Assembly: GCA_900769545.1 (NCBI GenBank) | Contig: CAAGGZ010000098.1 | Coordinates: 3,941-67,940, forward strand | Length of the DNA: 64,000 nucleotides | Source: Clostridia bacterium | GTDB taxonomy: Bacteria > Bacillota > Clostridia > Christensenellales > Borkfalkiaceae | Direction: 5' to 3' | Shown: positions 2,677 to 64,000 of the stretch, one piece after another | How the letters are laid out: the number at the start of each line of letters is the position of its first letter | How positions within the stretch are numbered: the stretch's first letter is position 1 | Translations under genes and position numbers: made by a program | The notes under the pieces: generated by a model | Databases searched by the model: none | Told to the model about the DNA's origin: nothing | The model's input: only the letters and a program-made list of their open reading frames with translations

Positions 2677-3876
2677 ATGAAAAACAGAATCGCATCGAGA
2701 ATGTCTACCCTTTCCCCGTCCTTGACGCTCGCTATTTCCGCAAAGGCAAAAGCGATGAAACAGGCAGGGGAGAGCGTTGTTTCCTTCAGCGTTGGCGAGC
2801 CTGACTTTAACACGCCTGCGCATATCATTGAAGCAGCGAAAGCAGCGCTGGACAACGGTCATACCAAATACACGCCGTCCTCGGGTTTGTTGCCCTTGCG
2901 TAAGGCGATTTGCGAAAAATTCAAAAAAGACAACGGCTTGGAATACGAGCCTTCCCAAATCATCGTCTCTAACGGCTCAAAACACTCCATTTTCAACGCT
3001 TGCTTTGCGGTATTGGACGAAGGCGACGAGGTTATTATCCCCGAGCCCTACTGGCTCACTTACCCCGAAGTGGTAAAGGTTTGCGGCGGCGTGCCTGTAT
3101 ATCTCACCTGCAAAAAGGAAAATAGATATAAGTTCTCCGCAGAGGAGCTCAAGGCGGCAATCACGCCCAAGACGAAAATGCTTATTTTCAACTCGCCGTC
3201 CAATCCCACGGGCGCGGTGTATAATGAAACGGAAGTCCGCGCGATTGCAAAGGTTTGCGAAGAAGCCGGCATTTTCGTGCTCGCAGACGAGATTTACGAA
3301 AAGCTCTGCTACAACGGCGTAAAACCTTTCTCTATCGCAAAATGCAGCGACGCGATGAAGGATTTGACTATCACCGTCAACGGCGTTTCTAAAACCTACG
3401 CCATGACCGGTTGGCGTGTGGGCTATCTTGCGGCTCCGAAAGACGTAGCGAAAGCAATCGACTCTTTCCAGAGCCACGCAACGTCCAACGCTTGTTCCAT
3501 TTCCCAGCACGCAACGATTGAAGCGTTGAACGCTCCCGAAGCGGAAATTCAGGAAATGGTGAGCGTATTCGACAAGCGCAGAGCGAAGCTCCTCGACTTA
3601 ATTGCGGAAATTGACGGTGTACGCGCAATCGAGCCCGACGGCGCATTCTACGTTATGTTGGTGGTTGACGGTTTGTACGGCAAGAGCTATCAAGGCAAAA
3701 CGATTACAAACTCTATCGAGTTTGCCGACGCGCTTTTGGACGGGGAAAAGGTAGCAACCGTTCCGGGTGTATCCTTCGGCGCAGACGATTGCTTGAGGCT
3801 TTCCTACTCGCTTAGCGAAGCGGACATTGAGGAAGGTTTAAAACGTATCAAAAAGTTTGTGAGTGAATTGAATTAA
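2677..3876 (+). CDS. PLP-dependent class I aminotransferase (aspartate aminotransferase-like)
   Basis: 399 aa. Contains GEPDFNTP and SKTYAMTGWRVGY (PLP-lysine motif). SD-like acggag lies upstream. Confidence 0.85.
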   Translation: MKNRIASRMSTLSPSLTLAISAKAKAMKQAGESVVSFSVGEPDFNTPAHIIEAAKAALDNGHTKYTPSSGLLPLRKAICEKFKKDNGLEYEPSQIIVSNGSKHSIFNACFAVLDEGDEVIIPEPYWLTYPEVVKVCGGVPVYLTCKKENRYKFSAEELKAAITPKTKMLIFNSPSNPTGAVYNETEVRAIAKVCEEAGIFVLADEIYEKLCYNGVKPFSIAKCSDAMKDLTITVNGVSKTYAMTGWRVGYLAAPKDVAKAIDSFQSHATSNACSISQHATIEALNAPEAEIQEMVSVFDKRRAKLLDLIAEIDGVRAIEPDGAFYVMLVVDGLYGKSYQGKTITNSIEFADALLDGEKVATVPGVSFGADDCLRLSYSLSEADIEEGLKRIKKFVSELN

Positions 3877-8399: not shown

Positions 8400-9026
8400 A
8401 TGAAAGAATATTACGAAGTTTTCGGTTTGCCCGAAACCGCTACGGATGAAGAAATTGCCGTAAGATATAAGGAATTAAAAGAAAAATACGGCGAAGAGAG
8501 ATGGTTGGACGGGGAAGCCGGTAACGAAGCTGCGAAGAATTTAACGAAGCTGGAGACGGCGTACCGTGAAATTATGGCGACGAGAAAAGAACAAAAGACA
8601 AATACCGAAGGGCAAAACGCTTATGAGGAAATTTCGCAGCTCTTAAAAGAGGATAAAATCGCCGAAGCGCAGGCAAAGCTCGACGATTTTAACGAAAGAA
8701 GCGCGGAGTGGCATTATTTGCAAGCTGTAGTTTTTTATAAGAAAAATTGGACGAACGACAGCAAAAAACAGCTTGAAATCGCGATGCAGATGGATCCCGA
8801 TAACGTGAAATACCGTAACGCTTACGGAAAAATGAACGCAAAGAATGATTATCAGCAACAGCAGGCGCACGAACAGCGGCAACAGCAAAATCCTTATACA
8901 AGGGACGGAATGCCTATGGATGACGACCCTATGATGGGCGGAAACGCTTGTTCGAACTGCATTTCTTGTTGTTATACCTACCTTTGCGTGGACTGTTTGT
9001 TCAGTCTTTGCTGCGGTTGTCGTTAA
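8400..9026 (+). CDS. J-domain-like protein lacking HPD, with Cys-rich C-terminal tail
   Basis: The N-terminus YYEVFGL..EEI..YKELKEKYGEE resembles a DnaJ J-domain, but GEE replaces HPD. A Q-rich segment follows. The tail CSNCISCCYTYLCVDCLFSLCCGC is Cys-rich. Confidence 0.6.
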   Translation: MKEYYEVFGLPETATDEEIAVRYKELKEKYGEERWLDGEAGNEAAKNLTKLETAYREIMATRKEQKTNTEGQNAYEEISQLLKEDKIAEAQAKLDDFNERSAEWHYLQAVVFYKKNWTNDSKKQLEIAMQMDPDNVKYRNAYGKMNAKNDYQQQQAHEQRQQQNPYTRDGMPMDDDPMMGGNACSNCISCCYTYLCVDCLFSLCCGCR

Positions 9027-17977: not shown

Positions 17978-18001
17978 AATAAGAAATTTAGAGGTGTTAA
18001 A

Positions 18002-18355
18002 ATGTTAAAAATATATCAATGTGAAGCTTGTAAGAAGACGATTATCAGCAAAGTAGAGCTCCGTTTAGAGGGTTGGAAGGAATTGTTTGCAGGAAGCGTA
18101 GACGCGGCGCAGGAAAAGCACATTCCCGTTGTGAACGTAAGCGGTAATACCGTTAAAGTGGACGTAGGTAGCGTAGCGCATCCTATGACGGAAGAACATC
18201 TTATTGAATGGGTAGCGGTAGAAACGGAAAACGGCTATCAGGTACGTTCGTTGAAAGCGAATGATTCCCCTGTATGCGAATTTGTTCTTGCGGCTGGTGA
18301 AAGCGTGGTAGGCGTATACGCATATTGCAATCTTCACGGGCTTTGGAAAGCATAA
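18002..18355 (+). CDS. Superoxide reductase (desulfoferrodoxin family, reduced N-terminal domain)
   Basis: KHIPVV, HPMTEEHLIEW and CNLHGLWK are centre II ligands. The N-domain keeps only CEAC, as in the class III type. Confidence 0.8.
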   Translation: MLKIYQCEACKKTIISKVELRLEGWKELFAGSVDAAQEKHIPVVNVSGNTVKVDVGSVAHPMTEEHLIEWVAVETENGYQVRSLKANDSPVCEFVLAAGESVVGVYAYCNLHGLWKA

Positions 18356-19921: not shown

Positions 19922-19954
19922 AAATGCAAAATGCAAAGTGCAAAGTGCAAAATG
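19922..19954 (+). repeat. Heptamer array (4 units)
   Basis: TAAATGCAAAATGCAAAGTGCAAAGTGCAAAATG with TGCA at 19925, 19932, 19939 and 19946. Flank TTGGTAAGG. It lies directly after a terminator hairpin. Confidence 0.85.
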
Positions 19955-20052
19955 TTGGTAAGGTTTATATGAAATTAGTGTTCGGAGCAATAGTCGCTCC
20001 TGTTTAAGGGGGACTTTTTTGTATGGAAATGAAGTTTGCTTGCCGTAGAAAC

Positions 20053-22496: not shown

Positions 22497-24623
<2,127 letters not shown>

Positions 24624-24646
24624 TAAAACGAAAAGGCTTTTCAACC

Positions 24647-24765
24647 GGAAGTCAAGAAACTCAGTTTCTTGCGGAGTGCAGGGCGGAGCCTTTGCAATAA
24701 CCTCACTAAAAGCAAGCTTTGCTTGCGTTACTACTGCGTAAGCAGTCCATGGGCGAAGCCCAAAA
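24647..24765 (+). repeat. Diverged solo copy of the four-hairpin core (no heptamer arrays)
   Basis: GGAAGTCAAGAAACTCAGTTTCTTG..TGCAGGGCGGAGCCTTTGCA..GCAAGCTTTGCTTGC..ACTGCGTAAGCAGT is colinear with 42550-42655. It lies between the ligA stop and the terminator. Confidence 0.8.
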
Positions 24766-24859: not shown

Positions 24860-25450
24860 TTACGAATTTCTAACATAAACGACTAAAGTTTTGATAATTC
24901 TTGGATGGTTAAAATAGAATATTACTCCGTCAATATCTAATGTAGTAGGATAGTCTACCCCAAAAGAGAATTCCAATCCGCTTAATATTTTTAAGACGGG
25001 ATAATTATTGTAAAAGCCATAAAACCAAGTTAAATCAATATCTTTAGCTTCAATATCGGGACAAGATGTACCAGGCTGTTCGCGAAGTTCTTTTGCGCGT
25101 GCTTCTTTTATTTCGGCGGCTAATTCATCGCTTAATTTTTCATTAGGGCTACTTTGTATTCCGTTGCGAATGTCGGCAATTTTTTGAAGGTCTTCTTTGC
25201 TGATGAACCCCAGTTTATAAGCTTCTTCCAAAGTATAAAATGTCCCGAGTGTAACAATTTCTTCACTGCTTTCTACTTCACTACTTTCTTCACTGCTTTC
25301 TACTTCACTACTTTCTTCGCTACTTTCCACCGAGCTGTTTACGCTCTCCACGCTACTATCCGAAGTAGCGCCGCCGCAAGCGGAAAAAACAAGGCTGAAA
25401 ACCAATATGGCCGAAAGTAAAAGTGCCTGTAAACGTTTCATTTTTTTCAT
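24860..25450 (-). CDS. Lipoprotein with Ser/Glu-rich linker, unknown C-terminal domain
   Basis: Lipobox LVFSACGG. A 27-bp in-frame tandem repeat encodes SSEESSEVE twice. Confidence 0.65.
   Translation of the reverse strand: MKKMKRLQALLLSAILVFSLVFSACGGATSDSSVESVNSSVESSEESSEVESSEESSEVESSEEIVTLGTFYTLEEAYKLGFISKEDLQKIADIRNGIQSSPNEKLSDELAAEIKEARAKELREQPGTSCPDIEAKDIDLTWFYGFYNNYPVLKILSGLEFSFGVDYPTTLDIDGVIFYFNHPRIIKTLVVYVRNS
25269..25322 (-). repeat. In-frame tandem repeat (2 x 27 bp) encoding SSEESSEVE
   Basis: TTCTTCACTGCTTTCTACTTCACTACT appears twice, perfectly. Confidence 0.85.
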
Positions 25451-25518
25451 AATAATACCTCCTAATGGATTATCTGCTTTATATACCTATTTTTTTTGAT
25501 TATTTTTCCACTTATTTT
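25322..25518 (-). repeat. ~197-bp duplicated lipoprotein 5' cassette, copy 1
   Basis: The cassette holds upstream region, RBS, signal peptide and start of the S/E linker. It is near-identical to 25991-26187, with a few substitutions and one 1-nt indel. Confidence 0.85.
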
Positions 25519-26119
25519 TAATTCGTTTATTTGCGGTCAATAAACCATTTAAGCCCCATTGCGCACTATAATACGAATCAGTAGCAACCCAATTATACTC
25601 AATATCATAATTATATTGCGGTTCGGCTACTAAAACAATATCCAAATCTTCTATTTCATCGATAAGTTTCAAAACGTTTTCTTTGCTATGCGTATACAAT
25701 TCAAAAACTAATGATTGATTTGTTCTTTCTCTTAAATTTAACCGTTTGTTCTCATTGGCGTAAATGGTATCATGATAATTGCTTATACTATAGACTTGGT
25801 CTAAACTTGCAAAAGGGAAATCGGAAAAACCAATGGTTTCCATTGTGCTATATTTGCTTTTTAAAATTACGCAGATAAGATTATCTTCAAAATCTTCTTC
25901 AATAGTGGGTTCTCGATGATATCGTAGAAGGTCTTTATCGTCTTCACTGAGGTCATCTTCTTGTGAAGTTTCGCCTGAACTATCCATCGAACTTTCCACC
26001 GAGCTATTTACGCTCTCCACGCTACTATCCGAAGTAGCGCCGCCACAAGCGGACAAAATAAGGCTGAAAACCAATACAGCCGAAAGTAAAAGTGTCTGTA
26101 AACGTTTTAATTTTTTCAT
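25487..26119 (-). CDS. Lipoprotein resembling a subtilase (S8) propeptide, truncated just after the QWGL motif
   Basis: Its N-terminal 45 aa are near-identical to the neighbouring gene. The body is I9-propeptide-like and ends ...AEPQYNYD..YYSAQWGLNGL. The tail is encoded by duplicated upstream-region sequence. Confidence 0.55.
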   Translation of the reverse strand: MKKLKRLQTLLLSAVLVFSLILSACGGATSDSSVESVNSSVESSMDSSGETSQEDDLSEDDKDLLRYHREPTIEEDFEDNLICVILKSKYSTMETIGFSDFPFASLDQVYSISNYHDTIYANENKRLNLRERTNQSLVFELYTHSKENVLKLIDEIEDLDIVLVAEPQYNYDIEYNWVATDSYYSAQWGLNGLLTANKRIKNKWKNNQKK

Positions 26120-26187
26120 AATAATACCTCCTAATGGATTTATCTATTTTATATACTTATTTTTTTGATTATTTTTCCACTTATTTT
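25991..26187 (-). repeat. ~197-bp duplicated lipoprotein 5' cassette, copy 2
   Basis: See copy 1. Both contain CATAATAATACCTCCTAATGGATT and TTTTTTGATTATTTTTCCACTTATTTT. Confidence 0.85.
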
Positions 26188-31538: not shown

Positions 31539-32489
31539 ATGAAAATAGTTTTTGCAGGTACGCCTGAATTTGCGGTGAAACCGCTTGAAAAAATACTCGA
31601 TAACGGCTACAACGTCGTAGGGGTCATCACGCAAATGGATAAACCGCAGGGCAGAAAGGGAATTTTGACTCCTCCGCCTGTGAAAACGTTGGCGTTAGAG
31701 CGTAATATCCCTGTGCTTCAGCCTGAAAAAATCCGCGAGCACGTAGACGAAGTCAAAGCGCTCGGCGGAGACATTCTTGTTACCTGTGCTTACGGACAAA
31801 TTTTAACGCAGGCGGTGCTGGATTGCTTCCCTATGGGCGTTTGGAATATCCATGCAGGCTTGCTCCCTAAATATCGCGGAGCGTCACCCATTCAAAGCTG
31901 CATTTTAAACGGCGAAAGCGAAACGGGCGTTTGCATTATGAAAACGGAGCTTGGATTGGACTGCGGCGACGTACTGCGCGTAGAAAAAACACCCATTGGC
32001 GAAACAGAAACTTATGGCGAATTATCCGACCGTCTTTCCCTCATCGGCGCAGAGCTGATAATTACGGCTTTAAAGCTGTTGGAGGGGGGCAGGTATGCGT
32101 TGACGGCGCAAGACGAGGAGGGAATCGGCGTTGTGCGTAAGATCAACAAAGAGCAAGCGAAAATTGATTTTGCGCGCTCTAAGAGAGAAATTATCAACCT
32201 CGTTCGCGGTATGAATCCCGCTCCCGTAGCCTATACGGAATTGGAGGGGAACAAAATCAACGTGTATTTGGCGGAAGAAGCGGTTTTGACGGACGAAGAA
32301 AGGGCTGTATGCGCGCAGGCGCAAATCGGCGAAGTATTATCGGACAAGCCGAAGCGTGGTTTGCTCGTGAAATGCGGCGACGGAGCCGTTCGCTTAAAAG
32401 AAGTGCAAGCGGCAGGCGGCAAACGCATTTCGGGCGGTGATTTCATCAACGGCAGAAAAGCGCAAAAGGGACAGGTGTTTTCATGCTGA
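31539..32489 (+). CDS. fmt: Methionyl-tRNA formyltransferase
   Basis: MKIVFAGTPEFAV and NIHAGLLPKYRGASPIQ. Confidence 0.9.
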   Translation: MKIVFAGTPEFAVKPLEKILDNGYNVVGVITQMDKPQGRKGILTPPPVKTLALERNIPVLQPEKIREHVDEVKALGGDILVTCAYGQILTQAVLDCFPMGVWNIHAGLLPKYRGASPIQSCILNGESETGVCIMKTELGLDCGDVLRVEKTPIGETETYGELSDRLSLIGAELIITALKLLEGGRYALTAQDEEGIGVVRKINKEQAKIDFARSKREIINLVRGMNPAPVAYTELEGNKINVYLAEEAVLTDEERAVCAQAQIGEVLSDKPKRGLLVKCGDGAVRLKEVQAAGGKRISGGDFINGRKAQKGQVFSC

Positions 32490-33715
32490 GCAATCCCGTA
32501 TATGATCCTTTTCAAATTTTAACGAGAGTGTATTCGGACGGAGCGCACGTCAAACAGGCAATTACCGACACGTACATTGAGGAGCAATATCGCTCCCGAA
32601 CGGTTAAAATTGTGTACGGCGTATTGGAAAACGACGGATATTTTGATTTCTGTATCCGTCATTATGCGCCGAAAGCCCCCAAATTGGCGGTGCGGACAAT
32701 TTTGAAAATTTCTCTGTATATGCTCCTTTTTATGGATAAAAAGCGGTATATGGTTACCGATTGCGCCGTGGATTTGTGTAAAAAGTTGGGCAAAAGCGGT
32801 GTCAGCGGTTTCGTCAATGCCTTTTTGCGCCGTTTTAACGAAGCGGACGTGCAAAGCGCGCTCCCTAAAGGCGTAGAGGGGGAAAGCGCGCGCTATTCCT
32901 ATCCCTTATTCGCTTATAAAAAACTCCAAAAAGAATATGGCGAAAGGGCGGCGGCGATTGCGCAGGCTTGTTCGGCAGGCGTATCCGTGCGTTTTGAGCG
33001 TGGCGCAGAAGCGTATGAAAACAGAACGCATATCAAAACGCCCTTTGACAACAATTATATTTTTGAAAATTTCATCCGCGACGAGGGTTTTGACGAGGGC
33101 GCGTATACCTTCCAATCGGTAGGAAGTATCGCCATTTGCGATTGCGTAGCTCCGTGTGAAGAATTGCTTGATTGTTGCGCCGCTCCGGGCGGAAAGTCGG
33201 TGTTGCTTGCGAAGAAATGCAAACAAGTTACCGCTTTTGAATTGCACGCGCACCGTGTGGAGCTCATTCAGCAATACAAGCAGCGTATGGGCGTGGAAAA
33301 TGTAACGGAGCAGCAGAAAGACAGCTCGGTATTCGATAGCGAGTACGAGGAGAAATTCGACGCGGTGCTTTGCGACGCTCCCTGTTCGGGGTACGGCACG
33401 GTGAGCGAAAATCCCGACATCAAGCTGTTTAGAAAAGAGAGTGACTTTTTAGAGCTCGAAAAAATGCAACGCGCGATTTTAAATACTGTTGCTCGGTACG
33501 TTAAAAAAGGCGGTGCGCTGTATTATTCGACGTGTTCGCTGTTTGAGTGTGAAAACGACGGTACGGTGGGTGCTTTTTTAAAGGAGCATACCGAATTTTC
33601 GGTAGAGGCATTGAACAGTCTGCTTCCGCACGATAAAAAGAAATATGGATTGCAATTTTTGCCCGATACCGCTTACGGCGCAGGGTTTTACGTTTGTAAA
33701 ATGGTGAAAAGATAA
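32483..33715 (+). CDS. rsmB: 16S rRNA (cytosine-C5)-methyltransferase RsmB/Sun-like
   Basis: DCCAAPGGKS and DAPCSGYGT motifs. Overlaps the fmt stop by 7 nt. Confidence 0.85.
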   Translation: MLSNPVYDPFQILTRVYSDGAHVKQAITDTYIEEQYRSRTVKIVYGVLENDGYFDFCIRHYAPKAPKLAVRTILKISLYMLLFMDKKRYMVTDCAVDLCKKLGKSGVSGFVNAFLRRFNEADVQSALPKGVEGESARYSYPLFAYKKLQKEYGERAAAIAQACSAGVSVRFERGAEAYENRTHIKTPFDNNYIFENFIRDEGFDEGAYTFQSVGSIAICDCVAPCEELLDCCAAPGGKSVLLAKKCKQVTAFELHAHRVELIQQYKQRMGVENVTEQQKDSSVFDSEYEEKFDAVLCDAPCSGYGTVSENPDIKLFRKESDFLELEKMQRAILNTVARYVKKGGALYYSTCSLFECENDGTVGAFLKEHTEFSVEALNSLLPHDKKKYGLQFLPDTAYGAGFYVCKMVKR

Positions 33716-33720
33716 AGGGT

Positions 33721-33931
33721 AAGGAGTCAAGAGGCATTGCCTCTTGCGTGGTATGGAGCAGAGCTCCACAAGAAAAGCCTTACGAAAGCAAAACGTAGTT
33801 TTGCGCTATTATCACAAAGTGATGAACGCCTAAGGCGTAAAAGGCGCAACCTAAGGTTGCTTAAAAAAAAGGGGGGACTATTTAGGGGCGTTGCCCCAAA
33901 CCCCACGAGGAACTGAGTTCCTCGACCTTCC
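33721..33931 (+). repeat. ~210-bp multi-hairpin element with GTCAAG...CTCGAC inverted termini
   Basis: About 8 short hairpins with 3-nt loops. The first ~75 nt align with 63368-63440. The 3' terminal hairpin CGAGGAACTGAGTTCCTCGAC mirrors the 5' terminal module of the core family. Confidence 0.8.
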
Positions 33932-33949
33932 GACAGGAGTACAGGATTT

Positions 33950-35011
33950 ATGAAAAAAATTTTACAAGATTTATCCTTTGCGGAGTTGGAGAAATACGTA
34001 CTCTCGCTCGGGGAGAAAAAATTCCGCGCAAAACAACTTTACGATGGGTTGATGCAAGGAAAAGCCATAACCGAAATATCCTCTCTTTCAAAGGCTTTGA
34101 AGGAGCGAATTTGCGAGGAATACGAAGATTGCCCCGTTCGGATAAAAGAAACGTTTTTATCTTCCGACGGGACGGAAAAATACCTTTTTGAGTATGCCGA
34201 CGGAAATCTTGTCGAGGGCGTATTGATGAAATATAAATACGGCTATACGCAGTGCGTTTCTACGCAGGTCGGTTGCAGAATGGGTTGTAAATTCTGCGCT
34301 TCCACGCTCGGTGGATTGATTCGTAATTTAACGGCAGGCGAGATTTTATCGCAGATACTCGTGGTCAATGCGCTTCACAAAAATGACGTCGTAGGGCAAG
34401 GCAAGGAAGCCCGCGCCGTCACCAACGTTGTGCTGATGGGCAGTGGGGAGCCGCTTGACAACTACGACGAAGTTTTAAAATTTTTACGCAACGTTACCGC
34501 AGAGGGCGGCGTTTGTATCAGCGCGAGAAATATTTCTCTCTCTACTTGTGGGATTGTGCCGAAAATGTATCAGCTTGCGGAAGAGGGGATTCCGCTCAAT
34601 CTCACGGTATCTTTGCATGCGACGGACGATGAGGCGCGCGCAAGGACAATGCCTGTTGCGAAAGCCTATAAAATAGCGGATATTTTAAAAGCCTGCGATA
34701 ATTATTTCAAAAAAACGGGCAGACGGTATTATTTCGAGTACACCCTCATTGAAGGGGAAAATTGCGATGAGGAGCACGCAAAAGCGTTGATTGCCTTACT
34801 CAAAGGCAAGCCCTGTCATGTGAATCTCATTCGTTTAAACGAAGTAAAGGAGCGTGATTTAAAAGCGCTCAGCGATAAAGAAGCCTACCGCTTTTTAGGA
34901 ATGTTGGAAAAGGGCGGTTTGAGCGCAACGCTTCGCCGTCAAATAGGGGTGGATATTGGGGGAGCGTGCGGACAGCTCCGCGCGAGCTATTTAGAGGATA
35001 AAGGAGTGTAA
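33950..35011 (+). CDS. rlmN: 23S rRNA/tRNA (adenine-C2)-methyltransferase, radical SAM
   Basis: CRMGCKFCAS radical-SAM motif and C-terminal GGACGQL. Confidence 0.9.
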   Translation: MKKILQDLSFAELEKYVLSLGEKKFRAKQLYDGLMQGKAITEISSLSKALKERICEEYEDCPVRIKETFLSSDGTEKYLFEYADGNLVEGVLMKYKYGYTQCVSTQVGCRMGCKFCASTLGGLIRNLTAGEILSQILVVNALHKNDVVGQGKEARAVTNVVLMGSGEPLDNYDEVLKFLRNVTAEGGVCISARNISLSTCGIVPKMYQLAEEGIPLNLTVSLHATDDEARARTMPVAKAYKIADILKACDNYFKKTGRRYYFEYTLIEGENCDEEHAKALIALLKGKPCHVNLIRLNEVKERDLKALSDKEAYRFLGMLEKGGLSATLRRQIGVDIGGACGQLRASYLEDKGV

Positions 35012-42504: not shown

Positions 42505-42690
42505 AAATGCAAAATGCATAATGCAAAGTGCAAAATGAAGGTAGGATGGGAAGTCAAGGAACTGAGTTCCTTGTCAGGGTGCAGGGGCGGAAGCCCTTGC
42601 AGGAGTAGCCCAAAATAAGCAAGCTATGCTTGCGTCACTACTGCGTAGCAGTCGATAAAAATGCAAAATGCATAATGCAAAATGCAAAAT
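42505..42690 (+). repeat. Composite element: heptamer array, four-hairpin core, heptamer array
   Basis: Arrays at 42505-42537 and 42658-42690 (4 units each) flank the core at 42538-42657. The core is near-identical to 61075-61197. Confidence 0.9.
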
Positions 42691-42720
42691 TATGGAAAAA
42701 TTAAAAAGGCTTTATTGCTT

Positions 42721-42753
42721 GGCTCCCTTGTGTAAAGGGAGCTGACTTTTTTT
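42721..42753 (+). terminator. Intrinsic terminator downstream of recG and the composite element
   Basis: GGCTCCCTT-GTGTA-AAGGGAGC followed by TGACTTTTTTT. Confidence 0.7.
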
Positions 42754-42825
42754 GTAGAAAAAAGGCTGAGGGATTGTTAAAAAGCTGACTCGCCGCGGCT
42801 TTTGTCTTATATTTTTTTAAAACTA

Positions 42826-42854: not shown

Positions 42855-43070
42855 AAAACTGCGACATAATTTCATAAAAATCTCAAAAAGGCATATACTT
42901 CTTTGGTGGAAGTGTATCTTTTTCGCGTTACAAAAAACCTTTTTGGGATTGGTAATAGAAATTGTGTCGCAACAAAAGCGGAAAGGACATTTTTACAGGT
43001 GTCGTTCCCTTTTGTGGATCGACACTTTTCTTATTTAAAAGGAAAAATAAAACCAAGGAGGCATTATAAA

Positions 43071-44993
43071 GTGAAAAGTGTAAAAAGATTTTTAATTGGC
43101 GCATTGGCAATGCTAGTCTCTTGCGCAGGTTTTGCGGCTTGTGGTGGTGCAGGTGAAAGCTCTTTATCGAGTTCGGAGAAAGCAAGCTCGGTAGAAGAAG
43201 TTTCATCAGAAGAAAGTAATTCGACGGTGGATATTTCTTCGGAAGAGCATAGTAGTTCGGAAGAGCATAGTAGTTCGGAAGAAGAGAGCAGTTCGGTAGA
43301 GGAAAGTTCTTCTAAAGAAGACAGTTCGGTGGAAGAACATATACATAACTATGAATTGACGGGTAAAACGTCTGTTACTTGTACGGAAGATGGACAGATG
43401 GTGTATACTTGTAAATGTGGGGATAGTTATACAGAGACGGTTGCTGCTTGGGGACACGATTACATAAACGATGAATGTATCTACTGTGGTAAAAAACCAA
43501 GTGAAGGCTTGGAGTATGAATTAAGTGGAATGACGTATTCAGTAGTGGGCATCGGCTCGTGTACGGATACCGATTTGGTAATTCCTTTTACTCATAATAA
43601 TTTACCTGTGACGAGCATTGGTGATGGTGCGTTCGCCTATTGTGACAGTTTGACGAGTGTGGTAATTTCCGACAGTGTGACGAGTATTGGCGACGAGGCA
43701 TTCGTTTATTGTGAGAATTTAACGAGCTTGAAAATCGGCAACAGTGTGACATGTATTGGTGATGGTGCGTTCTATCAATGTAGCAGTTTGACGAGCGTTG
43801 TAATTCCCGATAGCGTGACGAGTATTGAGTGGGGGGCGTTTGCTCACTGTGGAGAATTGACAAGCGTGGAGATTCCCAACGGTGTGACAAGTATTGATGG
43901 TGCTACGTTCGCTGATTGTGACAGTTTGACGAGTGTGATGATTCCTAACAGTGTGACAAGTATTGATAATGAGGCGTTCGCCTATTGTGACAGTTTGACG
44001 AGTGTGGTGATTCCCAACAGTGTGACAAGTATTGATGATAGTGCGTTCGCCTATTGTGACAGTTTGACGAAGATAGAAGTAGACGAAAATAACAGCGTAT
44101 ACAAATCTATAGACGGCGATTTGTATACAAAAGACGGCGCAACGTTGATACAATATGCCATAGGGAAAACAGCAACGTCCTTTACAATTCCCGACAGTGT
44201 AACAAGTATTGGTGTTTGGGCGTTCTTTGGTTGTAGTTTGACGAGCATAGAAGTATCGGAAAATAACAGTGCATATAAATCTATAGAAGGCAATTTGTAT
44301 ACAAAAGATGGCGCAACGTTGATACAATATGCCATAGGGAAAACAGCAACGTCTTTTACAACCCCTGACAGCGTGACGAGTATTGAGTGGTTTGCGTTCG
44401 CCTATTGTGATAGTTTGACGAGTGTGGTAATTGGCGACAGTGTGGTAAGTATTGGTTATTATGCGTTCGCCTATTGTGATAGTTTGACGAGTGTGGTAAT
44501 TGGCGACAGTGTGATAAGTATCGGAGCTTGTGCGTTCTATTATTGCGACAGTTTGACGGGCATAGAAATATCGGAAAATAACAGCGTATATAAATCGATA
44601 GACGGCAATGTATATACAAAAGACGGCGCAACGTTGATACAATACGCCATAGGGAAAACGGCAAGCTTGTTCATTATTCCTGACAGTGTGACGAGTATTG
44701 ATTATGAGGCGTTTTCTTCTTGTAGCAGTTTGACGAGCGTGGTGATTAGCGACAGTGTGACAAGTATTGCTGATAGTGCGTTCGCTGACTGTAAAGAATT
44801 GACAAGCGTGGTGATGTCCGACAGTGTGACGAGTATTGGATATGCGGTGTTTTTTTCTTGTAGCAGTTTGACAAGTATTACCTTTAGCGGTACAGTCGAA
44901 CAATGGAAGGCGATTGAGAAAGATGATGATTGGAATATTGGCGTTCCTGCGACAGAAGTGGTTTGCAAGGACGGAAAAGTTGCGCTTAAATAA
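43071..44993 (+). CDS. BspA-type leucine-rich-repeat (LRR_5-like) lipoprotein with N-terminal His/Cys modules
   Basis: GTG start 9 nt after aaggagg. Lipobox LVSCAGFAAC, then an SSEE linker and HIHNY..CTEDG..CKCG and GHDY..CIYCG modules. About 20 repeats of (I/V)PxSVTSIGxxAFxxCxSLTS follow. Confidence 0.8.
   Translation: MKSVKRFLIGALAMLVSCAGFAACGGAGESSLSSSEKASSVEEVSSEESNSTVDISSEEHSSSEEHSSSEEESSSVEESSSKEDSSVEEHIHNYELTGKTSVTCTEDGQMVYTCKCGDSYTETVAAWGHDYINDECIYCGKKPSEGLEYELSGMTYSVVGIGSCTDTDLVIPFTHNNLPVTSIGDGAFAYCDSLTSVVISDSVTSIGDEAFVYCENLTSLKIGNSVTCIGDGAFYQCSSLTSVVIPDSVTSIEWGAFAHCGELTSVEIPNGVTSIDGATFADCDSLTSVMIPNSVTSIDNEAFAYCDSLTSVVIPNSVTSIDDSAFAYCDSLTKIEVDENNSVYKSIDGDLYTKDGATLIQYAIGKTATSFTIPDSVTSIGVWAFFGCSLTSIEVSENNSAYKSIEGNLYTKDGATLIQYAIGKTATSFTTPDSVTSIEWFAFAYCDSLTSVVIGDSVVSIGYYAFAYCDSLTSVVIGDSVISIGACAFYYCDSLTGIEISENNSVYKSIDGNVYTKDGATLIQYAIGKTASLFIIPDSVTSIDYEAFSSCSSLTSVVISDSVTSIADSAFADCKELTSVVMSDSVTSIGYAVFFSCSSLTSITFSGTVEQWKAIEKDDDWNIGVPATEVVCKDGKVALK
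43239..43310 (+). repeat. In-frame 18-bp tandem repeat (4 units, 2 perfect) encoding SEEHSS-type linker
   Basis: TCGGAAGAGCATAGTAGT appears twice, followed by two diverged units. Confidence 0.8.
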
Positions 44994-45022
44994 ATGCAAA
45001 ATGCGAAGTGCGAAATTGTGGA
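44991..45022 (+). repeat. Heptamer array (3 units)
   Basis: TAAATGCAAAATGCGAAGTGCGAAATTGTGG. Its first TAA is the stop codon of the LRR gene. Confidence 0.8.
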
Positions 45023-57035: not shown

Positions 57036-57134
57036 AACGACGTATGTACGTCGCATTTCTACGTTGCTGTTCGGTTACATACTAACGGTATGCGCCCTCA
57101 CAGCGCCTTGAACTGCTCGTATCTCCGCCGTTTT
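57036..57134. repeat. Intergenic sequence related to 22497-22679
   Basis: CGACGTATGTACGTCG hairpin and GCGCCTTGAACTGCTCGTATCTC. It is followed by a heptamer array. Confidence 0.45.
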
Positions 57135-57165
57135 AAGTGCGAAATGCGAAGTGCGAAATTGTGGC
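57135..57165 (+). repeat. Heptamer array (3 units)
   Basis: AAGTGCGAAATGCGAAGTGCGAAATTGTGG. Confidence 0.8.
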
Positions 57166-57304: not shown

Positions 57305-58684
57305 ATGGAAAAAATGTGGGCAGGGCGGTTTCAAAAAGCCCTGGATAAAAAAGCAGACGATTTTAATTCTTCCCTGCGTTTTGATTTCAGAATGTACGCG
57401 CAGGATATAAAAGGCTCGATGGCGCACGCGGCAATGCTCGCAAAACAAGGCATTGTTCCCGAAAAGGACGTCGATTTGATATTGGACGGGTTAGAAGGTA
57501 TCCTTGCCGATTTAGAGGCAGGGAAGCTCACCTTTGACGACAACGCCGAAGATATTCACATGTATGTCGAGGCGGAGCTCACCAAACGTATCGGGGAAGC
57601 AGGCAAAAAGCTGCACACCGCGCGTAGCCGTAACGACCAAGTAGCGGTGGATATTCGTTTATATCTTCGAGATAAAGCTGCGGAAGTGGTGGAGCTTGTC
57701 AAAACCCTTCTTTCCGTTGTGGTAGATAAAGCGGAAGAAACCGCAGACGTGATTGCGCCCGGGTACACGCATTTACAACGCGCGCAACCCATTTCGTTTG
57801 GGCATCAGTTGATGGCGTATGCGATGATGCTGCTCCGTGATATGGGCAGAATCAAGGACGCCGTAAAGCGTATGAACGTTTCGCCTTTGGGAAGCTGCGC
57901 TTTGGCTGGAACGACCTATCCCACGGACAGAGCGTTCGTGGCGGAAAAGCTCGGGTTTGACGGCGTTATGCAAAATAGTATCGATGGGGTTTCCGACCGC
58001 GATTTTTGCGTGGAGCTGATGAGCGCGTTTGCAATCCTTATGATGCACCTGTCGAGATTTTCCGAGGAAATTATTTTGTGGTCGAGTTGGGAGTTCAAGT
58101 TTATCGAGCTTGACGATTCCTACACTACGGGCTCGTCCATTATGCCGCAAAAGAAAAACCCTGACATGGCGGAGCTTGTCCGCGGTAAAACGGGTAGAGT
58201 ATACGGAAATTTAATGGCGCTTTTGACGACGCTCAAAGGCTTGCCGCTCGCATACAATAAGGACATGCAAGAGGACAAGGAGGCGATTTTCGATTCGTTA
58301 GACACGGTGATTATGTGTTTGGAAGTGTTTGCGCCTATGGTTGCGACGATGAAAGTGAATGCGGACATTACGTATAAAGCGGCGCAGAAAGGCTTTATCA
58401 ACGCCACCGATTTGGCGGATTATCTGACGAAAAAGGGCGTGCCGTTCCGTGTTGCGTATAAGGCGGTGGGGCAAATTGTGGCTGAGTGTATCGAAAAGGG
58501 CTGTGTTTTGGACGAATATCCCTTGGCGGAATACAAAAAACACAGCGACGTTTTTGAAGAAGATTTATATGAAGAAATCTCTCTTGAAACTTGCGTAAAC
58601 AAGCGTTTAAGCGAGGGCGGAGCTTCTCCTTCGTCTGTGAGAAAACAGGTGGAATGGGTGAGGAAGGAAATGCAAAATGCATAA
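57305..58684 (+). CDS. argH: Argininosuccinate lyase
   Basis: MWAGRF and GSSIMPQKKNPD signature. The start could be the ATG at 57314. The last 5 codons and the stop lie inside a heptamer array. Confidence 0.9.
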   Translation: MEKMWAGRFQKALDKKADDFNSSLRFDFRMYAQDIKGSMAHAAMLAKQGIVPEKDVDLILDGLEGILADLEAGKLTFDDNAEDIHMYVEAELTKRIGEAGKKLHTARSRNDQVAVDIRLYLRDKAAEVVELVKTLLSVVVDKAEETADVIAPGYTHLQRAQPISFGHQLMAYAMMLLRDMGRIKDAVKRMNVSPLGSCALAGTTYPTDRAFVAEKLGFDGVMQNSIDGVSDRDFCVELMSAFAILMMHLSRFSEEIILWSSWEFKFIELDDSYTTGSSIMPQKKNPDMAELVRGKTGRVYGNLMALLTTLKGLPLAYNKDMQEDKEAIFDSLDTVIMCLEVFAPMVATMKVNADITYKAAQKGFINATDLADYLTKKGVPFRVAYKAVGQIVAECIEKGCVLDEYPLAEYKKHSDVFEEDLYEEISLETCVNKRLSEGGASPSSVRKQVEWVRKEMQNA

Positions 58685-58705
58685 TGCAAAATGCAAAATT
58701 GAGGA
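58668..58705 (+). repeat. Heptamer array (4 units) overlapping the argH 3' end
   Basis: AAATGCAAAATGCATAATGCAAAATGCAAAATTGAGG. It encodes ..MQNA and the TAA stop of argH. Confidence 0.85.
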
Positions 58706-58741: not shown

Positions 58742-59668
58742 ATGAAAAAAGTATTTATTGACGGCAGCGCAGGGACAACGGGCTTGCGGATATACGAAAG
58801 ACTTTCCAAAAGAGAGGACGTTGCATTACTGCTCCTGTCAGAGGAAAAAAGAAAAGATATTTCGGCGAGAAAGGAAATGCTCAATCGCGCGGACGTGGCG
58901 TTTTTATGTCTGCCCGACGATGCGGCAAGGGAAGCGGTAACGCTCGTCGAAAACCCCGAAACGGTGATAATCGACGCCTCCACGGCGCATAGAACGTTGT
59001 CCGATTGGGCGTATGGCTTTCCGGAGCTTTCCAAAGCCCATGAAGGACGGATATTGAGCTCTAAAAGAATAGCAAACCCCGGCTGTCATGCCAGCGGCTT
59101 TATTGCGCTTACTTATCCGCTTGTGGAAGCAGGGCTGTTGAAGAAAGACGCTTTGCTTACCTGTCATTCGATTACGGGTTATTCGGGCGGCGGTAAAAAA
59201 ATGATTACCGAATACGAAACGGAGAGCCGTAATTTGTTATTGGGCGCGCCCCGTCAGTACGGGCTTTCGCAACAGCATAAGCATTTAAAAGAAATGCAAG
59301 CCATCGTTGGCTTGGAAGTTGCGCCTATGTTTTCGCCTATCGTGGCAGATTTTTACAGCGGTATGACAGTGACGGTGCCTTTGTTTAAACAGCAGATAAA
59401 CGGCTCGATAGAGGACGTAAAAGCGGTGCTCAAGCAAAAATACAACGGCGAGATTGTCAGTTATGTCGAAAGTGTGGACGAGGACGGATTTATTTCCGGG
59501 CTTGCGTTATCGGGGAAGGACAGTATGAAAATTACCGTATGCGGCAACGCAGAGCGAATTTTACTCATAGCGGCGTATGACAACCTTGGCAAAGGCGCAA
59601 GCGGCGCGGCGGTGGAATGTATGAATATGGTCATCGGCGCGGATACAAAAGCAGGGCTGATTTTGTAA
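58742..59668 (+). CDS. argC: N-acetyl-gamma-glutamyl-phosphate reductase (short form)
   Basis: IANPGCHASG active-site Cys. 308 aa. Confidence 0.85.
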   Translation: MKKVFIDGSAGTTGLRIYERLSKREDVALLLLSEEKRKDISARKEMLNRADVAFLCLPDDAAREAVTLVENPETVIIDASTAHRTLSDWAYGFPELSKAHEGRILSSKRIANPGCHASGFIALTYPLVEAGLLKKDALLTCHSITGYSGGGKKMITEYETESRNLLLGAPRQYGLSQQHKHLKEMQAIVGLEVAPMFSPIVADFYSGMTVTVPLFKQQINGSIEDVKAVLKQKYNGEIVSYVESVDEDGFISGLALSGKDSMKITVCGNAERILLIAAYDNLGKGASGAAVECMNMVIGADTKAGLIL

Positions 59669-59716
59669 ATGCAAAATGCAAAATGCAAAATGCAAAATGC
59701 GAAATGAAGGTAGGAT
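59666..59716 (+). repeat. Heptamer array (5 units)
   Basis: TAAATGCAAAATGCAAAATGCAAAATGCAAAATGCGAAATGAAGGTAGGAT. Its first TAA is the argC stop. The flank is identical to 42536-42547. Confidence 0.85.
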
Positions 59717-61043: not shown

Positions 61044-61228
61044 AAATGCAAAATGCAAAGTGCAAAATGCAAAATTGTGGAAGGATAGGAAGTCAAGGAA
61101 CTCAGTTCCTTGTCAGGGTGCAGGGGCGGAAGCCCTTGCAATAGTAGCCCTTCCAAAAGCAAGCTATGCTTGCGCTACTACTGCGCAGCAGCGATAAAAA
61201 TGCAAAGTGCAAAATGCAAAATGCGAAA
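61044..61228 (+). repeat. Composite element: heptamer array, four-hairpin core, heptamer array
   Basis: Arrays at 61044-61074 and 61198-61228. Core hairpins are AAGGAACTCAGTTCCTT, TGCAGGGGCGGAAGCCCTTGCA, GCAAGCTATGCTTGC and CTGCGCAGCAG. Confidence 0.9.
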
Positions 61229-61328
61229 TATACAGGTTGATTTTGCAGTAAATCAAAGTCTGGATGCAACGGCACGTTGCCTGTGGAACGCTGGCAACAA
61301 TTCACGAAAATTACTTATGGAGTTTATT

Positions 61329-62198
61329 ATGGAAAAACCTACCACGGCGCAACGCGCGCAAATATTAACCCAAGCGTTACCCTATATTCAAAAATATTAT
61401 AATAAAATCATCGTCGTAAAGTATGGCGGTAATGCGATGCTTAATGACGAGCTCAAGGAAGCCGTGATGGGCGATATTGTATTGCTCTCGCTTATCGGTA
61501 TCAAAGTTGTGTTGGTACACGGCGGCGGCCCTGAAATCACGGAAATGCTTGGGAAAGTGGGTAAAAAGTCGGAGTTTGTCAACGGGCTTCGCGTTACCGA
61601 CCAAGAAACGGTGGATATTGTGCAGATGGTATTGGCGGGCAAAGTGAATAAAAACCTCGTCAACCACTTGCAGAGAAAGGGCGGTAAAGCTATCGGGCTT
61701 TGCGGTATGGACGGCCACATGATCCGCGCGAAAAAGGTGGACGAACGTTTGGGCTTTGTCGGAGAGATTACCGACGTCAACGTAGCGCCTGTTGTCGACG
61801 TGCTCGAAAAGGGGTATATTCCTGTCATTTCAACGGTTGGCTATGATTTGGACGGCAATACGTACAATATCAATGCGGACACCGTTGCGGCGCGTATTGC
61901 AGGGGAATTGAAAGCGGAATGTCTGATTTCTATGACGGATATTGTGGGTTTGCTCCGTGATAAGGACGACCCGACGACGCTCATTCCCAAGGTATACGTT
62001 TCCGACGCGCCCAAGCTTATGAGAGACGGCGTTATCAGCGGCGGTATGATTCCCAAAATTAACTGCTGTATCGAGGCGATTCGCCGTGGGGTGCATAAGG
62101 TCTTTATTTTGGACGGCAGAGTGCCGCACGCCATCTTGATTGAAATTCTCACTGACGAGGGCTTGGGAACAATGTTTGTTTCGGGGAGCGGTATTTAA
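61329..62198 (+). CDS. argB: Acetylglutamate kinase
   Basis: IIVVKYGGNAM and VLVHGGGP. The longer ORF from 61110 runs through a repeat element and is rejected. Confidence 0.88.
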   Translation: MEKPTTAQRAQILTQALPYIQKYYNKIIVVKYGGNAMLNDELKEAVMGDIVLLSLIGIKVVLVHGGGPEITEMLGKVGKKSEFVNGLRVTDQETVDIVQMVLAGKVNKNLVNHLQRKGGKAIGLCGMDGHMIRAKKVDERLGFVGEITDVNVAPVVDVLEKGYIPVISTVGYDLDGNTYNINADTVAARIAGELKAECLISMTDIVGLLRDKDDPTTLIPKVYVSDAPKLMRDGVISGGMIPKINCCIEAIRRGVHKVFILDGRVPHAILIEILTDEGLGTMFVSGSGI

Positions 62199-63358
62199 TG
62201 AACATCATTGAATTGGATAAACAGTACGTTGCGAACACCTACGCGCGTTTTCCTTTGCAGCTTGTAAAAGGAAAGGGCTCCTTGGTGTACGATGAAAACG
62301 GAAAAGAATATATTGACTTGGGCACAGGTATTGCAGTCAACGCATTCGGCGTGGGTGATACCGAATGGAAAGCGGCGGTAATTGCGCAGCTTGACAAAAT
62401 TCAACACACCTCCAACCTGTATTATAGCGAGCCTTGCGCTCTGCTTGCGAAAGAGCTCTGCGTTCGAACTGGTATGAAAAAGGTGTTTTTCTCCAACTCG
62501 GGGGCAGAAGCCAACGAGTGCGCCATCAAGGCGGCGAGAAAGTATGGGGAGATCAAAAAAGGCAAGGAATATTGCACGGTAATCACCCTAAAAAACAGCT
62601 TCCACGGGCGCACGATTACAACCCTTTCAGCGACGGGACAGGACGTATTTCACGAGCATTTCACGCCTATGACGGAGGGGTTTGTATATGCAACGGCGAA
62701 TGATTTTGAGGAATTGAAAACACTTGCGATAAACCACAAATGTTGCGGCGTGATGATAGAGCTTGTGCAAGGCGAGGGCGGCGTGATGGCGCTCGATAAG
62801 GAATATGTACAGGCAGTAGCGGCGTTTTGTCAAGAACAAGATATGCTGTTGATTGCAGACGAGGTACAAACGGGCAACGGCAGAACGGGCAGTTTGTATG
62901 CGTTTATGGAATACGGCATTATTCCCGACGTGGTTACGACCGCGAAAGGCTTAGGCGGCGGTTTGCCGATTGGCGCAACGATGCTCGGGGAAAGAGCGGA
63001 AACGTTGTTCACGGCGGGGTTGAACGGCTCCACGTTCGGCGGAAATCCCGTGGCGTGCGCAGGCGCGTTGAGTATATTAGAGCGCATAGACGAAAAACTG
63101 CTTGCAGAAGTCAAAGAAAAGAGCGCGTACATTTTCAATGAATTACAGAACGCAGAGGGCGTAAAGAGCGTTTCGGGTATGGGTTTTATGATCGGTATTG
63201 AAACGGAAAAAGACGCCTCTAAGGTTATCGCGGATTGTATGGAAAAGGGAGTTTTGGTGATAAAAGCGAAGAACAAAGTACGTTTGTTGCCTGCGCTCAA
63301 TATCCCGTGGGAACAGTTAAAAAAGGCGATTACAACGCTGAAAACGGCGTTGAAGTAA
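62198..63358 (+). CDS. argD: Acetylornithine aminotransferase
   Basis: SNSGAEANE, DEVQTG and TTAKGLGGG (PLP lysine). Its ATG overlaps the argB stop. Confidence 0.88.
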   Translation: MNIIELDKQYVANTYARFPLQLVKGKGSLVYDENGKEYIDLGTGIAVNAFGVGDTEWKAAVIAQLDKIQHTSNLYYSEPCALLAKELCVRTGMKKVFFSNSGAEANECAIKAARKYGEIKKGKEYCTVITLKNSFHGRTITTLSATGQDVFHEHFTPMTEGFVYATANDFEELKTLAINHKCCGVMIELVQGEGGVMALDKEYVQAVAAFCQEQDMLLIADEVQTGNGRTGSLYAFMEYGIIPDVVTTAKGLGGGLPIGATMLGERAETLFTAGLNGSTFGGNPVACAGALSILERIDEKLLAEVKEKSAYIFNELQNAEGVKSVSGMGFMIGIETEKDASKVIADCMEKGVLVIKAKNKVRLLPALNIPWEQLKKAITTLKTALK

Positions 63359-63367
63359 AAAAGGGAA

Positions 63368-63580
63368 GTAAGAAGTCAAGAAACTTAGTTTCTTGCGAGG
63401 TGTGGAGCAGAGCTCCACGGGAAGAAGCCCAAAGAGAAGCAAAGCTTTGCTTTGCGCTAAAAGACGCCTTTGGCGTAGATGGCAGAGCCATGTAGCGCAA
63501 AACTGTGTTTTGCTTTTAAAGGGGGACATTGCAAAGGCCCCGCCTCTGCACACCGCAAGGGACAACGTCCCTTGACCCTA
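63368..63580 (+). repeat. ~210-bp multi-hairpin element with GTCAAG...CTTGAC inverted termini
   Basis: GTCAAGAAACTTAGTTTCTTG at the 5' end and CAAGGGACAACGTCCCTTGAC at the 3' end. The internal hairpin TGGAGCAGAGCTCCA is shared with 33753-33769. Confidence 0.8.
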
Positions 63581-63612
63581 AGTATTAGAAAACACATCAA
63601 AAGGAGATAGAA

Positions 63613-64000
63613 ATGAAACATTTATTAAAGTTGATGGATTTATCCAAGAAGGATATTACCGAAATTTTGAATTTGGCAGACCAGTTGAAATTCGAAAAGA
63701 AAAACGGTATCGAGCACCACTTGCTCAAAGGTAAAACGCTCGGTATGATTTTTGAGAAATCGTCCACCCGTACCCGTGTGTCGTTTGAGGTAGGTATGTA
63801 TGATTTGGGCGGTACGGCTCTGTTCTTGAGCTCCCGTGATTTGCAAATCGGCAGAGGGGAGCCCGTGCAGGACACCGCGCGCGTACTGTCGAGATATTTG
63901 GACGGTATCATGATTCGTACCTTTGCGCAAAAGGAAGTAGAGGATTTGGCGGAATACGGCTCTATTCCCATTATCAACGGTTTGACGGATTATTGTCATC
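63613..64000 (+). CDS. argF: Ornithine carbamoyltransferase (3' end outside window)
   Basis: FEKSSTRTRVSFE carbamoyl-phosphate motif. ATG after aaggag. Sits in the arg cluster. Confidence 0.8.
   Translation, partial: MKHLLKLMDLSKKDITEILNLADQLKFEKKNGIEHHLLKGKTLGMIFEKSSTRTRVSFEVGMYDLGGTALFLSSRDLQIGRGEPVQDTARVLSRYLDGIMIRTFAQKEVEDLAEYGSIPIINGLTDYCH

Follow-up and report, generated by a model that had tools for sequence, protein, structure and literature searches.

Operon spacers of an uncultured gut Clostridia lineage carry inverted dimers of a three-hairpin palindromic unit that may be a REP-like mobile repeat

Two spacers in the 64-kb stretch of clostridial DNA analyzed here (hereinafter, the window), one between rsmB and rlmN and the other between argD and argF, are occupied by long strings of small hairpins, which we denote elements A and B, respectively (Table 1). 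Both copies lie within operons, immediately before the ribosome-binding site (RBS) of the next gene, as had been proposed in the sequence-only reading in which these strings were noticed: the gene orders are Fmt-RsmB-(A)-RlmN and ArgJ-ArgB-ArgD-(B)-ArgF, and the gap to the RBS is 10-30 nt. The anatomy described in that reading is borne out. The two elements are colinear, with 76% column identity in an end-to-end alignment, and the hairpin scan finds 8 near-perfect mini-hairpins in A and 8 in B, in agreement with the initial estimate of about eight per copy; the six internal ones have stems of 5-9 bp in both A and B, and almost all of the loops are 3 nt long, as described. The termini (left, RGRAGTCAAG; right, CTTGACYY) are, as claimed, inverted copies of each other over 8-10 bp and are themselves hairpins, namely, CAAGAGGC-ATT-GCCTCTTG and CGAGGAAC-TGA-GTTCCTCG in A, and CAAGAAAC-TTA-GTTTCTTG and CAAGGGAC-AAC-GTCCCTTG in B. 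The foot of the terminal hairpin is CAAG/CTTG at each end, with the exception of the right end of A where it is CGAG/CTCG. The contention that hairpin 1 differs between A and B yet remains perfectly paired is correct as well, with three of the four variable stem pairs changed.

Table 1. Hairpin elements, their constituent units and hairpins, and flanking genes in the window
Feature	Coordinates	Strand	Evidence and remarks
rsmB, upstream of A	32483..33715	+	NCBIfam RsmB, E 1e-80
Long element A	33722..33930	+	~209 bp, rsmB-rlmN spacer; left unit, 2 central mini-hairpins, inverted right unit
A left unit	33720..33811	+	Covariance model R1, 83.8 bits, E 5e-18
A left-unit hairpin 1	33728-33746		Hairpin scan
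A left-unit hairpin 2	33754-33768		Hairpin scan; GGAGC-AGA-GCTCC type
A left-unit hairpin 3	33788-33804		Hairpin scan
A central mini-hairpins	33811..33838		Hairpin scan; ATCAC-AAA-GTGAT and ACGCC-TAA-GGCGT; stems covary across copies
A right unit, inverted	33839..33932	-	R1, 78.8 bits; unit alignment
A right-unit hairpin 1'	33906-33924
A right-unit hairpin 2'	33882-33900		GGGGC-GTT-GCCCC
A right-unit hairpin 3'	33846-33860
rlmN, downstream of A	33950..35011	+	TIGR00048, 341 bits; RBS AGGAG ~33936
argD, upstream of B	62198..63358	+	TIGR00707, 417 bits
Long element B	63371..63580	+	~210 bp, argD-argF spacer
B left unit	63369..63462	+	R1, 86.5 bits
B left-unit hairpin 1	63377-63395		Hairpin scan
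B left-unit hairpin 2	63402-63418		Hairpin scan
B left-unit hairpin 3	63439-63455		Hairpin scan
B central mini-hairpins	63464..63491		Hairpin scan; ACGCC-TTT-GGCGT and ATGGC-AGA-GCCAT
B right unit, inverted	63490..63582	-	R1, 77.9 bits; unit alignment
B right-unit hairpin 1'	63556-63574
B right-unit hairpin 2'	63530-63550
B right-unit hairpin 3'	63497-63513
argF, 5' part, downstream of B	63613..64000	+	Ornithine carbamoyltransferase, E 2e-53; RBS AAGGAG ~63600
Single (core) unit downstream of ligA	24645..24733	+	R1, 89.9 bits
Single (core) unit downstream of recG	42547..42640	+	R1 match; heptamer arrays on either side
Single (core) unit between argJ and argB	61086..61180	+	R1 match; heptamer arrays on either side

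Each of the 210-bp strings is an inverted dimer in which two palindromic units of ~90 nt, each with three hairpins, have their heads turned outward; the same unit also occurs on its own. The strings had been taken for a second family linked to a family of four-hairpin core elements; the link stands but the separateness does not, the long elements being dimers of the core unit. The pattern AGTCAAG-N11-15-CTTG is found 5 times in the window, compared with 0.15 expected, always on the plus strand; A and B account for one site each, and the other three belong to the core elements at 24650, 42552 and 61091. The 3' hairpin of A, which had been equated with the inverted hairpin 1 of the core family, indeed matches hairpin 1 of the core unit at 42555 in all but one, compensated, pair, and the 3' half of B, when read on the minus strand (GGGTCAAG-GGAC-GTT-GTCC-CTTGCGGTGTGCAGAGGCGGGGCCTTTGCA...AAAAGCAAAAC-ACA-GTTTTGCGCTAC), is colinear with the core units. 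Altogether, the seven units of the window (the three cores together with the left halves and, as reverse complements, the right halves of A and B) align colinearly over ~95 nt with 69% column identity. The covariance model made from this seven-unit alignment (R1) scores 7/7 window units at 78-90 bits and yields 58 matches with E <0.01 in 325 kb of sequence comprising the window and related loci.

The head of the unit consists of RGRAGT followed by a hairpin (CAAG-variable stem-loop-CTTG), a short G/T-rich linker comes next, the second hairpin is of a few types, for example, GTGGAGC-AGA-GCTCCAC or TGCAGGGGC-GGAA-GCCCTTGCA, and the third hairpin is AAGCAA..TTGCG. These units are found as singlets (the cores), as dimers in which two additional mini-hairpins occupy the middle, between the units, and as head-to-tail arrays of dimers. 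Every dimer detected, that is, A and B in the window and 12 more in L025, L027, L034, L054, L058, L061, L062, L064 and L065, consists of a plus unit followed by a minus unit, with the heads outward and ~120 nt from start to start, and the total length, in 12 copies from at least five organisms, is 207-214 bp. The single units are mainly co-oriented with the flanking genes, with ~12 independent sites in the sense orientation and one in the antisense orientation.

The surroundings of the single units have peculiarities of their own. Arrays of the heptamer AAATGCA/AAGTGCA are present in the window at 19922-19958, 42505-42541, 42659-42695, 44991-45021, 57134-57164, 58668-58704, 59666-59710, 61044-61080 and 61192-61234; these arrays start at or beside stop codons and flank single core units on both sides, and because the ATG repeats every 7 nt, it appears in all three frames. 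Comparison with L054 and L064 shows differences both in array length and in whether the enclosed unit is there. A motif, GGCTCCCTTGTGTAAAGGGAGCTG ... CTGAGGGATTGTTA, is located downstream of the unit in two unrelated genomes, at 42717-42780 in the window and on the minus strand in L005. The repeat also causes false gene calls: a 71-amino acid ‘gene’ called in L058 (4692-4907) lies wholly inside the ortholog of A, and the longest ORF for argB in the window (61110-62198) begins within a core unit, the real ATG being at ~61329.

Comparison of syntenic loci, which were found via homologs of RlmN and ArgD with 82-99% identity, reveals both filled and empty sites. The rsmB-rlmN spacer is 234 bp long in the window, and the element is also present in L058 (233 bp; 99% protein identity to the window) and L054 (232 bp; 97%), whereas the spacer is empty in L055/L056 (43 bp; 94%) and in L059/L060 (31 bp; 92%). 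At the same position, L061-63 (92%; 317-320 bp) contain another dimer of the same repeat family in which, compared with the window, the hairpin-2 types are exchanged between the left and right units, and L057 (91%) contains a DUF559 gene and other hairpins. The argD-argF spacer is filled in the window (254 bp), in L064 (248 bp; 92%) and in L065 (246 bp; 89%), whereas in L066-69 (82%), the two genes overlap (ATGA), leaving no spacer at all, and argJ and argB are separated by 18 bp. Empty sites, which the sequence-only reading had proposed to look for in related genomes, are found at both loci, as 31-43-bp spacers in one case and as overlapping genes in the other. The orthologs of A are 97% (L058) and 88% (L054) identical to it, and those of B in L064 and L065 are 86% identical. 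The single units are polymorphic as well, even between the two closest genomes: the one downstream of recG is present in the window and missing in L054, and L064 has a unit between argC and argJ that is missing in the window. The copy number varies among the relatives, with 11 units in 21 kb of L061, including head-to-tail dimer arrays with the junction CTTGACCCTTGGTTGGAAGTCAAG, 7 units in the 64 kb of the window, and none detected with R1 in the syntenic loci of L055, L057 and L059 or in the arg-operon loci of L066-69. This combination of presence-absence variation with lineage-specific expansion is indicative of a mobile or expanding repeat rather than a conserved feature of the operons.

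The repeat extends far beyond the immediate relatives of the window. The RlmN of the window has no exact sequence match on record. The pattern of the 45-nt head was found at 9 loci in 5 GTDB species genomes, the window's own genome not being among them: Candidatus Acutalibacter stercoravium (several loci), Candidatus A. pullicola, one Eubacteriales MAG, and two Clostridia MAGs from roe deer and sheep. A pattern that covered only the linker and hairpin 2, with the 5' arm of hairpin 1 outside the query, matched 44 metagenome contigs with 40-65% GC, and in these copies, hairpin 1 is still perfectly paired although it comes with at least 8 distinct upper stems. A 25-nt linker together with hairpin 2 is identical across taxa of widely differing GC content. 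The same left-type and right-type units are found in the GC-rich Acutalibacter-type genomes, where they enclose long strings of GC-rich hairpins, among them a terminator-like GGGGGGAC-GTAT-GTCCCCC hairpin. Among the Acutalibacter-type copies, two upstream contexts are combined with two downstream contexts. The alternative spelled out in the sequence-only reading, that only two copies exist and result from a local duplication with similarity confined to one end, can be put aside given that the copies far outnumber two and that the similarity between A and B spans the full length.

A phage or plasmid origin was considered and rejected: searches of IMG/VR and of plasmids returned no matches, and the only two weak matches were to unverified fecal ‘phage’ scaffolds with a right-type unit. 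These are human-feces scaffolds labeled ‘Bacteriophage sp.’, L070 (MT837043.1; 375-445) and MT838813.1, in which the right-type unit has the form GGGGCGTTGCCCCAAACCCCAC ... CAAGGGGCATTGCCCCTTGACCC; they may be bacterial fragments.

Elements A and B fold with z-scores of -4.3 to -5.4 on both strands, and none of 200 dinucleotide shuffles folds as well. In the alignment of 12 full-length copies, 98.2% of the 492 cells are standard pairs, and the hairpins are maintained by compensatory change, as the earlier reading supposed from the comparison of two copies: 20 of the 41 pairs show double changes (50 cells), whereas shuffling gives 9 +/- 1.9 such pairs and the slid controls give 1-2. On the transcribed strand, a selected RNA fold would normally leave numerous G·U intermediates, but one-sided (G·U) changes are found in only 4 cells, against the 50 cells with double changes. 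Among the non-Watson-Crick positions identified by the hairpin scan on the sense strand of nine gene-sense intergenic regions (five from the window and four from relatives), there are 5 G·T, 9 A·C and 17 others, and the test of G·U strand bias as a sign of RNA function detected no sense-strand bias; the G·T in hairpin 2 tracks the orientation of the unit, not the strand of the gene. The scarcity of G·U together with the lack of sense-strand bias points to perfect palindromes at the DNA level rather than to a selected RNA fold. We infer that the upkeep of such palindromes could involve recognition of folded single-stranded DNA (ssDNA), template-switch correction or exchange of whole hairpin modules.

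Conservation of the hairpins in orthologous spacers, which had been put forward as a critical observation, was found: the stems are intact, and the substitutions are confined to loops and linkers. This retention of stems could reflect selection on the host rather than selfish persistence. Overall, the identity of orthologous elements is 86-93% versus 60-70% at the 4-fold sites of the flanking genes. The control intergenic spacers of the same genomes are, however, 86-98% identical, on par with the elements, so that no special constraint can be claimed.

Several other explanations for the strings were considered and rejected. No Rfam covariance model matches the window at the gathering score, and a search of the two spacers with E up to 10 gives only chance-level hits (E >=0.013, far below gathering). 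The strings are not coding sequence because the length of hairpin 1 differs between genomes (11 nt vs 13-14 nt), so that no reading frame is kept. A promoter role, contemplated earlier, is not supported by the sequence scan, which finds no sigma-70-like promoter in A or B; TTGAC faces outward at both ends but no usable -10 box accompanies it. There is also no sense-strand terminator in A or B. Integron attC core sites (RYYYAAC ... GTTRRRY) are missing in A and B, where the termini are GTCAAG ... CTTGAC.

The search for a mobilizing enzyme and for traces of transposition gave similarly negative results, which so far lend no support to a RAYT/IS200-like transposase, one of the candidates named in the sequence-only reading. 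The 64-kb window encodes no transposase, and neither a Y1 or other matching transposase nor a pair of heads 350-6000 bp apart enclosing an ORF, as would be typical of an autonomous copy or parent IS, was detected in 630 kb of sequence. In the inspected Acutalibacter-type loci, no transposase was seen beside the units, and the ORFs adjoining the units are housekeeping genes or spurious antisense ORFs. In L024, an IS630-family IS (140-1093; HTH_Tnp_IS630 and DDE_3 in two ORFs, 30-bp TIRs) sits in a hairpin-rich spacer, ~130 bp from a unit; its transposase was discarded as a partner because its own TIRs are unrelated to the element ends. No consistent direct repeat that would qualify as a target-site duplication was found where the elements A, B, L025, L027, L034, L061 and L064/65 meet the flanking DNA. 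The divergence between spacers with and without the element is too great to define the junctions to the exact base. The left end is not preceded by a fixed target tetra- or pentanucleotide, the left flanks ending with CC, AT, TA, TT, CT or CA. On neither strand is the foot of hairpin 1 tagged with GT[AG]G or CGTC; the bases preceding the foot are AAGT, GAGT, TAGT, GGGT or CGCT.

The units described here are not the only repeats in this group of genomes. A third, unrelated family of hairpin repeats (CGGCG...GTACGTC.ATGTACAC...CCTTG type) is found in the window at 22497-22679 and 57036-57130, as well as in L054 (5019-5261), L064 (~8742-8900) and L057 (11057-11350), and its presence varies between relatives. 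L057, with 91% RlmN identity, has no GTCAAG units and instead contains long mini-hairpin strings separated by GTGAATTGC (1650-1926, 3369-3856, 7098-7338 and 17980-18205), so that different lineages of the clade carry different families of hairpin strings. Two paralogous small genes with only weak DUF matches are located between ligA and yicC in the window (24860-25450 and 25487-26119, minus strand); the segments spanning their starts (25322-25471 and 25991-26140) are 94% identical over 150 nt, and the genes are absent at the same position in L055 and L059. Repetitive genes are also present at 42903-44993 and 119-2389, namely, one for a BspA-type leucine-rich-repeat protein, with 69-nt tandem repeats, and a second large repetitive ORF with ATCTEAG-like motifs; both products are probably surface proteins.

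What kind of entity is this repeat? Our preferred answer, held with moderate confidence, is a non-autonomous interspersed repeat of the REP/REPIN/BIME type that is spreading in a subset of uncultured gut Clostridia lineages. That the strings are hairpin-rich spacers arising by chance, or a duplication local to this contig, is extremely improbable considering the fold z-scores, the 58 R1 matches in 325 kb, and the full-length colinear copies in independent NCBI, ENA, Logan and JGI assemblies and in other genera. A more serious contender is a cis-acting element of the host, such as an intercistronic mRNA stabilizer, processing ‘punctuation’ or a protein-binding DNA site, that is kept by selection and occasionally duplicated by recombination. 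The location past a stop codon and ahead of the following RBS in operons, and also at 3' ends, would fit this possibility, as would the orthologous copies with stable stems and variable loops and linkers, the identity of the 25-nt linker and hairpin 2 across taxa of very different GC content, and the mainly sense orientation of the single units, which is compatible with an RNA role too; the REPs of E. coli show such effects (PMC6006769, PMC3733652). Nevertheless, we consider such an origin unlikely. The elements are absent from close relatives with the same operons, in one of which argD and argF overlap, and the dimers necessarily place one unit in the antisense orientation. Hardly any G·U pairs and no sense-strand bias are observed, conservation (86-88%) does not exceed that of ordinary intergenic DNA in the same genomes (86-98%), and there is neither an Rfam match nor a sense-strand promoter or terminator.

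Quite unlikely, in our estimate, is a classical MITE, that is, an internally deleted IS of a DDE transposase, with 8-10-bp TIRs (RGRAGTCAAG ... CTTGACYY), that is moved by cut-and-paste by a transposase encoded elsewhere in the genome. Such an element would naturally account for the ends that are inverted copies of each other, the uniform length of 207-214 bp, the presence-absence polymorphism at orthologous sites and the TTGAC hexamers that face outward at both ends, as in many IS ends, but it is hard to reconcile with the absence of a target-site duplication at any copy. Furthermore, single units, which have just one ‘end’, match the dimers in frequency and are polymorphic in their own right, head-to-tail arrays and swapping of hairpin-2 types are atypical of cut-and-paste MITEs, no autonomous copy between matching ends turned up in 630 kb, and the IS630-type element of L024 has different inverted repeats.

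Under the REP-type interpretation that we favor, the unit would spread into intergenic DNA, including the short gaps between stop codon and RBS inside operons. An enzyme acting in trans would recognize, on folded ssDNA, the foot of the hairpin (GTCAAG/CTTG) together with the adjacent conserved ~20 nt, so that the upper stem would only need to pair, and the palindromes would be kept perfect at the DNA level through recognition by the enzyme and/or template-switch correction. The inserted element would be co-transcribed with the operon, and its hairpins would modulate mRNA decay or translational coupling only as a side effect. A bolder and distinctly tentative extension is a Clostridia-native partnership analogous to REPIN-RAYT, in which a single-copy, vertically inherited candidate enzyme, conserved across several families of gut Clostridia, would recognize the 45-nt two-hairpin head (GTCAAG-stem-CTTGCGAGGTGTGGAGCAGAGCTCCAC) on ssDNA and propagate singlets, inverted dimers and arrays, with every mini-palindrome kept perfect at the DNA level.

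The hairpin-string repeat appears to be previously undescribed, and searches of the literature, both for the conserved strings and for REP, RAYT or MITE in Clostridia, turned up no account of it. Some lineages of uncultured gut Clostridia have it in abundance and closely related ones lack it, operons whose genes are tightly packed or even overlap in other genomes are interrupted by it, and it combines a long head sequence common to genomes of 40-65% GC with an unusually clean signature of palindrome maintenance. Apart from its use as a marker for strain typing, it offers a lead to a new DNA enzyme specific for hairpins and a natural experiment on intercistronic structure and operon expression.

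Among the known systems, bacterial MITEs (Correia, RUP and Nezha) resemble the clostridial repeat in being short, intergenic, uniform in length, bounded by TIRs, polymorphic for insertion and co-transcribed with neighboring genes, but differ with regard to the target-site duplication, which is lacking here, the half-elements, which are common here, and the parent IS, none of which is known for the clostridial repeat. IS200-type TnpA is common in Clostridia, and the ends of IS200/IS605 contain subterminal hairpins of ~20 nt (PMC6006769). The PATEs derived from this IS family have hairpins of ~19-21 nt located a few nucleotides inside both ends, similar to the 19-nt hairpin 1 that lies 6 nt from each end of the clostridial element, and share with it the lack of target-site duplication and the conservation of structure along with variability of sequence. 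Whereas the ends of PATEs are look-alikes on one strand that come with guide sequences, those of the clostridial element are inverted copies of each other, and there is no conserved target tetra- or pentanucleotide 5' of the left end and no associated tnpA or tnpB.

Within the Firmicutes, a natural counterpart is BOX of Streptococcus pneumoniae, an intergenic mosaic repeat that is built of boxA-boxB(n)-boxC modules. We know of no sequence relationship between BOX and the clostridial unit. By its description (PMC3049150), BOX is similarly modular, with terminal modules that are related in inverted orientation, a variable number of internal hairpin modules and no transposase of its own known. 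The clostridial modules differ in being perfect-palindrome mini-hairpins with 3-nt loops, and the repeat spans several families of gut Clostridia instead of a single species.

The closest parallel is with the REP/REPIN/BIME repeats, which have been studied extensively in Proteobacteria and, to our knowledge, hardly described in Firmicutes. The REP elements of Proteobacteria occur as singlets, inverted doublets and mosaic clusters and are mobilized by RAYT, a Y1 HUH transposase whose cognate single-copy gene is flanked by the repeats. By definition, REPs have a GT[AG]G or CGTC tag at the unpaired 5' foot of the palindrome, and in a survey of the GTAG/CGTC elements, Firmicutes go unmentioned (PMC3733652). 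Unlike REP, a single hairpin of 20-65 nt, the clostridial unit strings together three hairpins over ~90 nt and lacks the GT[AG]G or CGTC foot tag. Neither the 64-kb window nor the inspected loci revealed a RAYT gene, and among the clostridial hosts, taxa with 40-65% GC share one head sequence of 25-45 nt. In most other respects listed here, the likeness is extensive: as with REP/REPIN/BIME, intergenic palindromic units form singlets, inverted dimers, both homo- and hetero-dimers, and clusters, are located in operons and at 3' ends, differ strongly in abundance between related strains, and retain the hairpin structure while the sequence of the stems varies. As in REP and REPIN, the inverted doublet is a main form, every dimer found consisting of a plus unit followed by a minus unit, and as in BIMEs, the clusters are mosaic, with hairpin-2 types that swap between left and right and a recurrent array junction.
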